The notes: generated by a model not told the origin, from the sequence alone. 61,947 nt of DNA from Clostridiales bacterium (GCA_022508325.1 JAFLVL010000002.1:1-61947), one strand, 5' to 3'; shown: positions 38,195 to 48,809, counted from the stretch's first letter. Numbers and translations are program-made.

Positions 38195-38268
38195 CTAATT
38201 AGTCAACATCCATTTTGCGTATATTCCGTAGCCACGCGTTGGGTCGTTAACGAAGACGTGGGTAACTG
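38195..38268. repeat. displaced copy of the spoIVB 3' end (island boundary, att-like)
   Basis: 65 of 74 nt identical to 48736-48809. On the minus strand it encodes [23 protein letters not shown]-stop, identical to the real SpoIVB C-terminus, but has no upstream gene body. Confidence 0.75.
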
Positions 38269-38368
38269 TCAAGAAGTTATAAGAAATTTTCTTCCATAAT
38301 TCGTGTAGTTTCGCTATAAAGCGAAATCTTTCGACAGGTATTGCACGACACATTTCGACCAATGCGTA

Positions 38369-39508
38369 TTATTTCTTCATGTCAAGCATTTCATTCACTC
38401 TTGTTTGTATAAATGCTTCGATAATCTTAAGTCGATCATTTGGCAAATTGTACTTGGGATGCTTTTTGAACTTAAAGTTAATCAACTTACGCAACTCTAC
38501 TCTCTGTCTATCCGACAAAAATTCTTGGACTAATGCGTCATAAGAAACTCCTTCAAATGCAGGTGTTCGGGTTTTTGCATACTTTTCAATCTCTCGCAAA
38601 TCGTCTTCCATCGCATAGTTGAAGAGCGAAAGACCGTTATCAAAAATCGGTGCTAATGCAATTGGCTTATTTGTACTGTTGTCAACAAGTAGCCCGAAAT
38701 TTCCGAAATGCCTATCGGTATTGCATACAAGAGCATCAAATATCATCATGTCGGCAAACTCATCATAATAACTGTCGCCAAGAGATTTCAGGTACTTTAC
38801 TGCCTTTGTTAATGTGCAATTAGGCAAAAATTTATGGATTGGAACATACGATGTATTAATGTCTGTAAAAAGCTCGCATGTCGAACATACAATATCTTTC
38901 CATTTGGACAAGCCATAATTAACATGTTTAAGCCCCATCCTTTCGGCTATTTGCGCCGCATAGAATTCGGAATAAGGTTCTTTTCCTGCGTTGGCTGCAC
39001 CCGAAGTACCGCCCTTGCTTAGATAAATTTTCTTGTTAATTCTGCGCCAGCATTTTCTGAGCATACCATTCGTGGTATATTCCGGCGATGAAGTAAACCC
39101 ATTGTGCGTTGTGCTACCGTAACCGGTATAGGCTATCAAAGCCAAAGTTCGACTAAAGCTGTTTTCGTAAAGATTGTAGCTTGCAAATTTTCCCCTGAAT
39201 CCCTCTTCGACAATCCAATAGCTGTCGTTAAGTGAAAGACCTTTACTCAACTGTATAATTCCGATTGTATCATTATGCGAAAGTCCACTTCGCGACAGAA
39301 TTTGATCAACAAACTCCCTATTTTTCGGTATTACGCGAGATGACAACCATCGGACAAGTCCTTCCGAATCGGGAGTCATTCCAATGGGTAATAAATATTT
39401 CAATTCGTCATTCACATATTCGATATGATAGACAATTTCTCCCAATTTAGCTCTTTGCAAACTAAACTTTAGAAGGATATTGTCGTATTCTCTTAATTCG
39501 AATATCAT
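38369..39508 (-). CDS. HipA-like serine/threonine kinase (toxin-type)
   Basis: Catalytic block 'FDALVCNTDRHFGNFGLL...APIFDNG' (HipA_C D-R-H-x-x-N motif) and a HipA-like N-terminal region. No HTH partner gene adjacent. Confidence 0.75.
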   Translation of the reverse strand: MIFELREYDNILLKFSLQRAKLGEIVYHIEYVNDELKYLLPIGMTPDSEGLVRWLSSRVIPKNREFVDQILSRSGLSHNDTIGIIQLSKGLSLNDSYWIVEEGFRGKFASYNLYENSFSRTLALIAYTGYGSTTHNGFTSSPEYTTNGMLRKCWRRINKKIYLSKGGTSGAANAGKEPYSEFYAAQIAERMGLKHVNYGLSKWKDIVCSTCELFTDINTSYVPIHKFLPNCTLTKAVKYLKSLGDSYYDEFADMMIFDALVCNTDRHFGNFGLLVDNSTNKPIALAPIFDNGLSLFNYAMEDDLREIEKYAKTRTPAFEGVSYDALVQEFLSDRQRVELRKLINFKFKKHPKYNLPNDRLKIIEAFIQTRVNEMLDMKK

Positions 39509-39695
39509 TGTTTACCAGCCCTTCCGCAATGAAAAATACAGTATAGTTTCCATCGAAACATTTTTTAATATTGTATCATATAAAAGCGGAAAATTCAATC
39601 AGTGAATAGGCATTGTACTTAAGCTTCTTAATGATTGAATTGAATTTAAAACAAAAAACATCAAAAATTTCGTTAATAATATCTTGCTCTGCGTT

Positions 39696-39971
39696 TTACT
39701 TTAGCTGATTAAGAATAAATTGTTCTAAGGCTTCTTGTAGGGATGGACCGTCATCATTAAATTCGACCTTTACAGGCGTATCTCCGACTTTGAATAAATA
39801 CGGATTTTTAATTTGTGCCATGAAAGACAGTATACGCTCAAGTACCGGTTTCGAAGTGTCTATATGTACGGTTCTTATGTCTACCAAATCTTCCAGCTTT
39901 ACATCACCAATATCCAAAGACTTAAGGCATTCCAATTGTTTTGACAAATTCTCTTTGTTTTTTTCACTCAT
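39696..39971 (-). CDS. small conserved hypothetical protein, DUF6870-like (assigned from memory)
   Basis: 'LVDIRTVHIDTSKPVLERILSFMAQIKNPYLFKVGDTPVKVEF' matches the pattern I recall for DUF6870 proteins on Firmicutes mobile elements. Confidence 0.4.
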   Translation of the reverse strand: MSEKNKENLSKQLECLKSLDIGDVKLEDLVDIRTVHIDTSKPVLERILSFMAQIKNPYLFKVGDTPVKVEFNDDGPSLQEALEQFILNQLK

Positions 39972-40114
39972 GCAATTTTCCCCTTATGTTATTACCTATG
40001 ATAATTATAGCATACTGCTTATATTTATCTATACTTATAGGCAAAAATCCTGTGAGTAAACATTTTATATATTAGAACGTCGGATTTAATTCAATGATAA
40101 TTTTTTTAAATTAA

Positions 40115-40150
40115 AAATAATATGGCAGTAAATTTACCGCCATATTATTT
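40115..40150 (-). terminator. terminator hairpin at the end of the RloB-like gene
   Basis: Stem AAATAATATGGC / GCCATATTATTT (40115-40126 / 40139-40150) with a T-rich tail on the minus strand. Confidence 0.5.
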
Positions 40151-47460: not shown

Positions 47461-47461
47461 T

Positions 47462-48061
47462 TTATTTCTCCTGTTTTATTAATTTAATCGTACCATATCT
47501 TGGCCTATCTACTGGATAGTTGTAATACTTGCCATTAATAGAATTGTTATCAAACGTGATTGAAGCTGTACCATCATGTTTATGTAAAGCTTTTAAATTT
47601 CCATTTGGGGCATTCATATAACAATAATACAAATAGATACTCCCATCGTCTGATACATCGATATGCGCCATATAACTCTGCGAATATGAATTATCTGTTT
47701 TTAATGAAATCAGTATTTTAGACCATGTTTGTTTAATCGTTACAGTTCCTTTCCAGTCTGAAGTTTTGAAGTTTGATTTGCCGTCACACAAATATTGACC
47801 ACTTATTTTTTTACTTTTTATGCCGGGTATTATTTGCCATAACCATCTGTCGAATATAAAATACAATGCTGCAAATATAGATGAAAAACCAAATCCGATA
47901 ATCAAAATAAAAGTTATAAAAGGTGATCCAAGATTATCTGACAGCCTTCTTACAATAAAATCACACAACGGGGTTAAAACCAAATTAAGAATCATTGATA
48001 GTATTGTAATAATAACAATACTTAGTCTTCGATGACATTTATTTGATGTATACTTATGCAT
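47462..48061 (-). CDS. 2TM plus beta-rich effector, Cap15-like (CBASS effector)
   Basis: Two N-terminal TM helices followed by a roughly 125-aa beta-strand-patterned domain ('GTVTIKQTWSKILISLKT', 'SIYLYYCY', 'GTASITF', 'GTIKLIK'). Its stop is 1 nt from the NTase ATG. Confidence 0.5.
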   Translation of the reverse strand: MHKYTSNKCHRRLSIVIITILSMILNLVLTPLCDFIVRRLSDNLGSPFITFILIIGFGFSSIFAALYFIFDRWLWQIIPGIKSKKISGQYLCDGKSNFKTSDWKGTVTIKQTWSKILISLKTDNSYSQSYMAHIDVSDDGSIYLYYCYMNAPNGNLKALHKHDGTASITFDNNSINGKYYNYPVDRPRYGTIKLIKQEK

Positions 48062-48294
48062 TAAACTTCACCCTCTAGCTTTTCTCATGCAGACATAGCA
48101 ACTCTATATTTAATGATCTGCACCAGACACAAATTAACATTTTGTTAAGACATTTCTCGCACCAATCTCAATTAGATATAGCTGACAATGAGATTCAATG
48201 GATTGTCTTTTTTTGTTATTTATTTAATATACCTGGTATAGTATAAAAAAGTTAAGTTTATTTAAAAATTAAGAAAAATTTTTATTAAAACTAA

Positions 48295-48486
48295 TCACTG
48301 CACCATTTTGTTTCTACGAATTAGCTAAATAAAGGTGCGGATCTACGTTCTGTTCAAGCAATACTTGCTCAAACTAGCGTAGCAACCACTCAAATTTATA
48401 CAGAAGTTAGTACAAACCGTAAAAAACAAGTTTTAAAAAAAATTATAGAAATAAGTTGTGATAATATTTTGAAATTTATTGACTGA
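48295..48486 (+). pseudogene. C-terminal remnant of a tyrosine recombinase/integrase
   Basis: Translates to SLHHFVSTN*LNKGADLRSVQAILAQTSVATTQIYTEV... versus the family pattern LRH-FAT-LL--GADLR-VQ-LLGH-S--TTQIYTHV. It has an in-frame TAG, Arg to His and His to Gln substitutions at catalytic positions, and no upstream gene body. Confidence 0.7.
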
Positions 48487-48735
48487 AAATTATTTGGCAC
48501 AATTTGGGCACAAAGTTGGCAGAAAAATGCGGATGCTTTTTATTTTGAAGCCTGCTATAATATGGACAAACAAACGGTCAAATCAAGTTTGACACTCAAT
48601 TTGACCGTTTGGATTTAATAATAGTTATTTGTTATATTTTTCACGTTTGTACTTTATTATTTGATAATCATGCATCGCTAACGTAAAAGAAAAGGAGGTC
48701 ATTAAACGTTAGCAAAATACAATGTATAGTAATAT

Positions 48736-48809
48736 CTAATTAGTCAGCATCCACTTGGCGTAGATGCCGTAGCCGCGCGTAGGGTCGTTAACGAATACGT
48801 GGGTGACTG
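48736..48809. repeat. spoIVB 3'-end copy inside the intact gene (partner of 38195-38268)
   Basis: 74-nt alignment with 9 mismatches, all synonymous (8 at third codon positions plus one TTG/CTG Leu). Confidence 0.75.

Follow-up and report, generated by a model that had tools for sequence, protein, structure and literature searches.

The region 38269-48809 of a 61,947-nt stretch of DNA from a Clostridiales bacterium (GCA_022508325.1 JAFLVL010000002.1:1-61947, hereafter the window, with all positions counted from its first letter) is very probably a horizontally acquired island, inserted site-specifically into the end of the sporulation gene spoIVB by a tyrosine recombinase, with an orphan copy of the gene end at 38195-38268 marking its far boundary. 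An initial annotation, made from the sequence alone, had proposed that such an insertion reconstituted spoIVB, and this is supported by the comparison with related loci, in which empty sites were found and the orphan proved to belong to no larger copy of the gene. With several known anti-phage systems clustered between its ends, the element qualifies as a defence island.

Two copies of the spoIVB end

Positions 38195-38268 and 48736-48809 form a direct repeat of 74 nt, aligned without gaps at 65/74 identical positions (E = 8e-17 by BLAST within the window), and no other long direct repeat occurs in the 26 kb that were examined. Across the window, no third or internal attachment-site (att) copy was detected at the DNA or the protein level, using blastn-short and a fuzzy protein search. 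Translated on the minus strand, both copies give the same 23 residues followed by a stop codon, and all nine differences between them are synonymous, eight at third codon positions and one a first-position CTG/TTG leucine change. Synonymous changes make up 22% of the possible single substitutions in the repeat, and nine out of nine would arise by chance with a probability of ~1.3e-6. Realignment and this substitution count agree with the initial annotation, which had described ungapped repeats encoding one protein end with exclusively synonymous differences. Its account of the two copies also held: the 48736 copy terminates an intact spoIVB open reading frame (ORF), and the 38195 copy has no gene body, similarity to spoIVB ceasing beyond the 74 nt.

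The base composition of the interior is distinct from that of the flanks, as had been noted at the outset. GC content is ~0.30 in 40150-48300, ~0.38 at the end that carries a HipA-like kinase gene and ~0.45 in the flanks. At third codon positions (GC3), the cargo genes show values of 0.20-0.27, against 0.46-0.50 for the flanking deoB, dacB and recN.

Four independent lines of sequence comparison identify the orphan as the host's original spoIVB end and the gene-attached copy as island-borne. The orphan and the DNA that follows it (38121-38278) align in one piece with the spoIVB end and flank of related loci in which the site is empty (L005, L022, L025, L028 and L029), and the hairpin of 38155-38178 recurs after spoIVB in the empty L005 and after the orphans of L063 and L064. 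When the window is compared with the occupied locus L063, identity is 77% in the spoIVB body, 90% in the gene-proximal copy, 91% in the left arm, 97-98% in the DUF6870 gene and hipA, 90% in the intergenic right arm, 77% in the orphan copy and 75% in the membrane-protein gene that follows it (deoB, 82%; dacB, 76%). A fixed-window comparison across both junctions reproduces these steps in identity.

The gene-proximal copy is 89-91% identical to its counterparts in L063 and L011, with values of 71-81% for the spoIVB body, and the copy and the adjoining 249-nt arm are 87-95% identical to islands of other species. Over 72 positions, the gene-proximal copies of L063 and L011, the hosts of which fall in different subclades, show 2 differences, the window copy shows 6-7 from both, and the window orphan shows 9-22 from all other copies. 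The orphan is 77-84% identical to those of L063 and L064, a host-level divergence. Its GC3 of 0.565 lies in the host range (0.50 for the spoIVB body; 23-codon windows with a standard deviation of 0.095 and a maximum of 0.70), and the GC3 of the gene-proximal copy, 0.78, exceeds that of every 23-codon window of the spoIVB body. The clustering of the gene-attached copy with the island copies of other species, set beside the host-level orphan, bears out the earlier proposal of a replacement gene end carried by the element.

Two gene-end copies in direct orientation could also be left by a local duplication, the orphan then being a duplicated remnant of spoIVB or a decayed paralogue, with the interior genes accumulated in between. 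Such an origin is extremely improbable, as homology ends at 74 nt, the orphan is contiguous with the native flank of empty sites, the sequence upstream of it is a conserved mobile-element end present at seven other loci, and the interior is 96-99% identical between species with flanks at ~75%. The reading frame upstream of the orphan is unconserved among genomes. A larger decayed paralogue around the 38195 copy, which the initial annotation had raised as a possibility, was not found; the conserved element end lies before the copy and the native flank after it.

The native hairpin and its T-run (38155-38178) overlap the start codon (38161) of the membrane-protein gene, an overlap which suggests that the structure may have a role beyond that of a terminator.

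Empty sites and a family of islands with common ends

Related loci were collected by a SpoIVB scan with one genome per species (47 loci) and a metagenome scan (12 more), all from uncultured gut Clostridia. The SpoIVB proteins of these 59 loci are at most 78% identical to that of the window, and the metagenome scan gave no closer SpoIVB above 75%. The ancestral gene order is recN, spoIVB, the membrane-protein gene, deoB, dacB, a site-2 protease gene and scpA. The empty site that the initial annotation had anticipated, with spoIVB directly before the homologue of the 37586-38161 gene (within 15-70 nt), was found at at least 12 loci (L002, L004, L005, L006, L012, L015, L018, L022, L025, L026, L028, L029 and others). 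Counted by genome, more than 15 relatives among the gut Clostridia show this arrangement. In a SpoIVB tree, occupied loci (the window, L063, L011, L046, L007, L009, L001 and L003) are interleaved with empty ones; the occupied L046, for example, has the empty L002 as its sister, and the occupied L009 sits beside the empty L004 and L006. This interleaving implies repeated gains or losses. Further along, the exact product of the 393-aa DeoB ORF, as read in the window, is not on record, the gene calls of relatives being 382 aa.

The architecture of the window island recurs elsewhere, in answer to the earlier suggestion that equivalent att repeats be sought around other elements: it was seen in L007, L011, L063 and L065, with both att copies present in L063 and L065. 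The ends of these islands are conserved. The 249-nt left arm stands directly after spoIVB in L063 (91% identical), L011 (88%) and L046 (~80%) and does not occur in the empty sites. At the opposite end, the right arm (38269..38368) is 90-93% identical to those of L063 and L064, and the sequence TTATAACTTNTTGACAG adjoins the orphan in the window, L007, L064-L067 and L071 (L063 has T for the final G). Every one of these loci, L063 included, has a HipA-like gene ahead of the orphan, and the DUF6870-HipA module of the window has 96-98% nucleotide identity with L063 and L064.

The middles of the islands differ. L064 has AbiL in common with the window and diverges further in; AbiL, DUF6870 and hipA are 96-98% identical between the two (the AbiL pair, 98% at the nucleotide level), against 74-82% for the flanking genes and 68% for a distal flank window. 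The middle of L063 carries PDC-M62A/B (Septu-like) and a HEPN protein, and those of L065 and L071 carry hipBA, AbiL and a YobI-like ATPase. The L065 and L071 islands are 99.1% identical over 7.5 kb, with flanks at 73-75%. In L007, a HipA-like gene stands alone between 80-nt repeats (98.75% identical), and L011 has an insert of 4.4 kb with an orphan of 38 nt. The suspicion that the window island is composite was thus well founded, the DUF6870-HipA module being a conserved end and the AT-rich middle differing between genomes. Islands 96-99% identical across species, the flanking genes of which are 68-82% identical, demonstrate horizontal sharing with boundaries at the repeat edges, and their occurrence at the same 74 nt amounts to a natural experiment.

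It appears from these comparisons that a tyrosine-recombinase crossover would have taken place at the 5' edge of the repeat, around CAGTYACCCAYGT, within the last 23 codons of spoIVB. The island would have carried its own copy of these codons, leaving spoIVB at full length and now ending in island DNA with an island-borne hairpin, and the host's original spoIVB end with its native hairpin would have been displaced 10.5 kb downstream. The two repeat copies would then be the spoIVB ends of two species, each under purifying selection before the insertion, and differences confined to synonymous sites are to be expected of such orthologous ends. In most genomes, as in the window, the orphan's homology to spoIVB starts within a few bases of CAGTYACCCAYGT (that of L011, with 38 nt, starts much further in). 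The common start, together with orphans that are host-like over their full length, suggests that the crossover was fixed at the repeat's 5' edge. From such patterns we infer the chemistry of the recombinase, exactly where the crossover lay and the route by which the island can move at present.

Homologous recombination at the 74-nt copies or the arms is a possible route for the spread of the islands and the exchange of their cargo. As a fuller alternative, it would have brought in the island or swapped its cargo, site-specific integration having occurred once, in an ancestor or a donor. Cassette exchange within the arms predicts conserved ends with differing middles, which is what the family shows, and the sampled islands are without an intact integrase. 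The spoIVB end retains 80-90% DNA identity across species, but 74 nt at this level of identity would be a poor interspecies substrate for RecA. Moreover, no high-identity hitch-hiking was seen in the flanking host genes, and the host-like, full-length orphans with a near-common start fit a fixed crossover better, L011 excepted. We therefore consider this alternative unlikely as the account of how the island arrived.

Other observations weigh against site-specific insertion, or narrow what it can be taken to explain. The comparators are all metagenome assemblies of other species; a conspecific genome with an empty site was not found, the exact SpoIVB protein being on record in the window's contig only. 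No sampled island of the family has an intact integrase between its att copies. Likewise, no free or circular form was found, two scans of viral contigs, one with protein and one with a degenerate att pattern, giving no match. The identity step at the left junction is blunter than that at the right, since spoIVB is in any case conserved in its 3' part. Finally, the left arm has diverged by ~9-12% from its counterparts in L063 and L011, against 2-4% for the right module; such unequal divergence shows that the two ends do not share one history, and the island may have accreted from two elements.

In its more specific form, this accretion would have begun with an older, integrase-less DUF6870-HipA element, joined in tandem by an integrase-bearing, AT-rich defence element, after which the inner att copy was deleted and the integrase decayed. 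Tandem accretion involving cis-mobilizable elements (CIMEs) is an established process (PMC5704250), and here it would be a history inside the site-specific insertion, which it does not contradict. An element of the first kind may be represented by L007, where the HipA-like gene lies alone between its repeats, and L011 has the left arm without the HipA module. The composition of the window also steps at ~40100, from a GC and GC3 of 0.38 and 0.34-0.38 in the HipA module to 0.30 and 0.20-0.27, close to the position (40112) at which homology with L063 breaks. No third att copy or relic is present in 39972-40149 or elsewhere in the window, however, and the middle cargo abuts the right-end module without an internal att copy in L063 and L064 (DUF6870-HipA) and in L065 and L071 (HipA-like alone), so the join would have to be old or otherwise made. 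Tandem accretion is therefore put forward only tentatively, the insertion itself being the better founded.

Cargo, integrase remnant and mobility

The features of the locus are collected in Table 1. All island genes between the two copies lie on the minus strand, except the integrase remnant on the plus strand.

Table 1. Coordinates of the island, its att copies and adjacent features in the window.
Feature	Position	Strand	Description or basis
spoIVB	48736..49836	-	intact, 366 aa from ATG; GTG two codons upstream is an alternative start; Peptidase_S55 and PDZ_2
Gene-proximal att copy (last 23 codons and stop of spoIVB, island-supplied)	48736..48809	-	cross-species identity, GC3
Left arm	48487..48735		249 nt from integrase stop codon to att copy; conserved
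Left-arm hairpin, 12-bp stem	48571-48611		self-inverted match
Tyrosine-recombinase pseudogene	48295..48486	+	C-terminal 64 codons only; convergent with spoIVB
CBASS effector Cap15	47462..48061	-	two transmembrane helices and cyclic-dinucleotide receptor domain; Pfam Cap15_CD_rec E = 2e-26; PADLOC 2TM effector E = 1e-40
CBASS CD-NTase (oligonucleotide cyclase)	46393..47460	-	PADLOC Cyclase E = 8e-84; PF26305 CD_NTase_C
227-aa protein	45558-46241	-	ORF; no family match
468-aa protein	44124-45530	-	ORF; no family match
59-aa peptide, YS[DQE] repeats	43952-44131	-	ORF; no family match
Radical SAM/SPASM enzyme	42827-43939	-	Radical_SAM and SPASM domains
AbiLi ATPase	40757-42040	-	PADLOC AbiLi E = 2e-64
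AbiLii	40150-40764	-	PADLOC AbiLii E = 3.5e-8
DUF6870	39696-39971	-	Pfam E = 1.5e-28; right-end module
HipA-like kinase	38369-39508	-	Pfam HipA_C E = 1.6e-7; PADLOC candidate family PDC-M03A E = 1e-19
Right arm	38269..38368		ends ...TTATAACTTCTTGACAG against orphan copy
Orphan att copy (displaced native spoIVB 3' end)	38195..38268	-	collinear with empty sites
Native hairpin and T-run, terminator-like	38155..38178	-	directly downstream of orphan copy
Membrane-protein gene	37586-38161	-	start codon at 38161; downstream neighbour of orphan copy

Searches of Pfam and PADLOC placed a defence cluster in the variable region, comprising a cyclase and Cap15, AbiLi/AbiLii and a PDC-M03A-like HipA. Cap15 with the CD-NTase constitutes a type I cyclic-oligonucleotide-based anti-phage signalling system (CBASS). 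Upstream of the abortive-infection pair, the radical SAM/SPASM gene is immediately preceded by the gene for a 59-aa peptide, which is in turn preceded by the co-oriented genes for the 468-aa and 227-aa proteins. The peptide has the C-terminus YYSDSDADYSDYSQYSEYSEYSELPVY, in which Tyr-Ser-Asp/Gln/Glu is repeated five times (...YSDYSQYSEYSEYSE...). The best NCBIfam matches of the radical SAM/SPASM enzyme are peptide maturases (DynA, cyclophane-forming), all of them under the curated cut-offs, and the 227-aa, 468-aa and 59-aa products matched no family in Pfam, PADLOC, NCBIfam or PHROGs searches. These four genes look like an undescribed modified-peptide operon inside the defence island, and all four are candidates for new defence genes.

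A degraded prophage would explain an integrase remnant beside an att site, and relatives of the HipA-like gene do also occur within a prophage. It is nonetheless a very improbable origin for the island, since neither Pfam nor PHROGs revealed capsid, tail, terminase or other structural, packaging or replication genes in the window, viral contigs gave no matches, and the related islands are also without phage genes. Conjugative functions were likewise not detected, with no relaxase, type IV secretion or conjugation domain in the window by Pfam. No structured RNA was found in the arm or the island by Rfam at E <= 0.1.

HipA-like kinases 70-84% identical to that of the window were seen in L068-L070 and L072-L074, including a conjugative element, where the gene lies beside that of a type IV coupling protein, and a prophage, where it lies beside tail genes. 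These settings show that the kinase is general mobile-element cargo and is not specific to islands at spoIVB. Use of the HipA-like gene as a marker for such islands was rejected, the family being very large and its other sites including the conjugative element and the prophage. The DUF6870 gene was observed in L075 (88-3898) directly upstream of paired large serine recombinases, 98% identical to a pair in L071, and therefore appears to be a recombinase-adjacent mobile-element gene, not a specific partner of the HipA-like kinase. DUF6870 had no mention in the literature searched.

The decayed integrase fragment that had been reported ~250 bp from one repeat was recovered on the plus strand, its stop codon 250 nt from the repeat. 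The match is to the last 31 positions (141-171) of the Pfam family PF00589 Phage_integrase (E = 7e-5), and the sequence is 75% identical to another fragment, P0001, over 48 aa. An in-frame stop codon is present at 48319-48321, and the catalytic motifs read LHH and LAQ, against the conserved LRH and LGH retained in P0001 and in a second sequence, P0002. No integrase-like sequence was found upstream of the 64-codon remnant. The integrase gene of the window is dead, a pseudogene.

A search for intact relatives of the remnant gave five short fragments only. The best of these, L061:2146-2382 and L062:564-812, are C-terminal stubs of 78-82 aa, and in L061 the stub and a glycyl-tRNA synthetase gene converge at the 3' end of the latter. 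This type of integrase may have left decayed copies at other gene ends too.

An intact 301-aa tyrosine integrase, followed by a gene for a Big_2 surface protein, is present just downstream of the native spoIVB end in L001, L007 and L065-L067 (observed at L001:9634-13144, L065:11700-15670, L066:7162-8067 and L007:3094-3180, in several rabbit-gut genomes). Where there is an island, the integrase follows the orphan copy; in L001 it follows spoIVB itself. It is only distantly related to the remnant in the window. This integrase could be a helper or the trace of an earlier tandem insertion. A decayed att relic beyond the Big_2 gene was considered in L001 and L065 and rejected, the alignment scores being no better than those of shuffled sequence.

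With its integrase a pseudogene and none intact in the sampled islands, the recent spread of the family would need a helper integrase or recombination between repeats. The window island itself could move only by means of an integrase supplied in trans or by recombination between the 74-nt repeats. The initial annotation had concluded that the element is now immobilised. This holds for self-mobility, which was lost with the integrase; it does not hold for the family, which has moved recently, as near-identical islands in different species attest. As a CIME would, the island has kept both att copies beside an integrase pseudogene, with no relaxase or type IV secretion domains, and we infer that it behaves like a cis-mobilizable element, the integrase being needed in trans.

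Known systems and variants around spoIVB

Of the closest parallels, the textbook one for the mode of insertion is the e14 prophage in the icd 3' end of Escherichia coli, a tyrosine-integrase element that carries a replacement end and leaves the displaced pseudo-end as a direct repeat (PMC6379469). The island described here is likewise inserted within a gene 3' end, with an intact gene and a displaced end. It differs from e14 in its target, spoIVB, in the length of the duplicated end (74 nt compared with 163 bp), in not being a prophage, and in having a decayed integrase and anti-phage cargo. Phage 21 too is integrated in the 3' end of icd, and most differences between the two icd ends are synonymous.

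A second parallel is found in the CIMEs at the fda 3' end of Streptococcus thermophilus (ICESt1/ICESt3 family), which have kept attL and attR, have lost the integration and transfer genes, form tandem arrays and are mobilised by the integrase of a neighbour (PMC5704250). The window similarly keeps both att copies with an integrase pseudogene, and L065 and L007 have an intact integrase just beyond the orphan. Unlike those arrays, the window lacks genes for conjugation or a relaxase as well as an accreted partner element, and its mobilisation is putative. Islands and prophages that target dusA are described as having a dedicated integrase clade, a conserved gene as a recurrent att site and variable cargo in many species (PMC4482086). 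The dusA elements lie at the 5' end of the gene with an intact diagnostic integrase, whereas the present island lies at a 3' end with an integrase remnant only.

Mobile elements in sporulation genes of endospore formers are represented by skin in sigK and SPbeta in spsM, where the gene is split and a large serine recombinase excises the element in the mother cell. In Bacillus, spoIVB is expressed in the forespore, and we know of no developmentally excised element in that compartment. The window shares with skin and SPbeta an insertion in a sporulation gene, but its spoIVB is intact and its recombinase is of the tyrosine type; only L013 and L016 resemble a split gene. No match to the large serine recombinase of L071 was found in the window by tblastn. 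An intervening element of the skin/SPbeta type was rejected for the window on these grounds, the spoIVB frame being intact and a serine recombinase match lacking.

No paper linking spoIVB with an integrase and attB was found in the full-text literature searched, and a broader search on genomic islands and prophages gave none on spoIVB. With this island, spoIVB joins the protein-coding genes used as attachment sites, the mode of insertion itself being well known. As the mechanism is a textbook one, the finding fills in the picture and changes no part of it. It does indicate that anti-phage systems, CBASS, AbiL and Septu-like candidates among them, are carried from one uncultured gut Clostridia species to another by a common chassis, and that new defence genes of this clade can predictably be sought in the interval between spoIVB and the membrane-protein gene.

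The spoIVB site in related uncultured gut Clostridia is used by a family of islands whose ends are conserved and whose anti-phage middle is exchangeable. A wider proposal, which we offer as speculation, is that the spoIVB 3' end is a docking site for still-active defence carriers that have no integrase of their own. The 249-nt arm and the DUF6870-HipA end that terminates in TTATAACTTNTTGACAG would serve as the chassis and the cassettes between them would be swapped. A helper integrase encoded elsewhere, perhaps the intact one just past the att copy in L001, L007 and L065, would move the chassis from one species of gut Clostridia to another. In L013, L016 and L071, a much larger element using the same core, with no replacement end of its own, would split spoIVB.

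In L013 (11020-11060) and L016 (11040-11080), spoIVB stops, after ...GAVTHV, precisely at the 5' edge of the repeat. Behind the truncated gene lie about 8.4 kb (a glycosyltransferase gene and gal genes) that are 97% identical between L013 and L016, compared with 67-75% for recN and spoIVB; a shared foreign element thus starts at the same core. L071:1-11460, from the same assembled genome as L013, contains two large serine recombinases, the hipBA-AbiL-HipA-like island and an orphan spoIVB end beside the membrane-protein gene. For the L013/L071 genome, no spoIVB end other than this orphan turned up among the loci examined, where the scan gave a single spoIVB locus and its probe peptide could not match the YGMYAKWM end. 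In these loci, spoIVB looks to be split by a large insertion without a replacement end. In a search for the far end of the large L013/L016 element, the L071 serine recombinase retrieved no L016 contig; the best match showed only a DUF6870 gene ahead of two serine recombinases.

On the other side of spoIVB, the window encodes a 689-aa SpoVK-like AAA+ protein (49983-52052, minus strand) between recN and spoIVB. No homologue covering >=40% of it was present in any of the 47 genome loci, and in many closer relatives (L002, L004, L006, L012 and L046) recN ends ~100-270 nt before spoIVB. This region may be a second variable spot.

In L010 (9168-13122) and L035 (1-2207), recN and the membrane-protein gene have their usual orientation to each other, and only spoIVB is inverted relative to them; nothing convincing was found in L010 by way of flanking inverted repeats that would explain it. 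Four of the loci (L019, L021, L022 and L047) come from genomes with labels such as Candidatus Fimimonas, placed under Myxococcaceae in the NCBI taxonomy, and, in one case, Corallococcus. Their spoIVB lies in the Clostridia gene order (deoB, dacB, scpA), and these taxonomic labels therefore look wrong.

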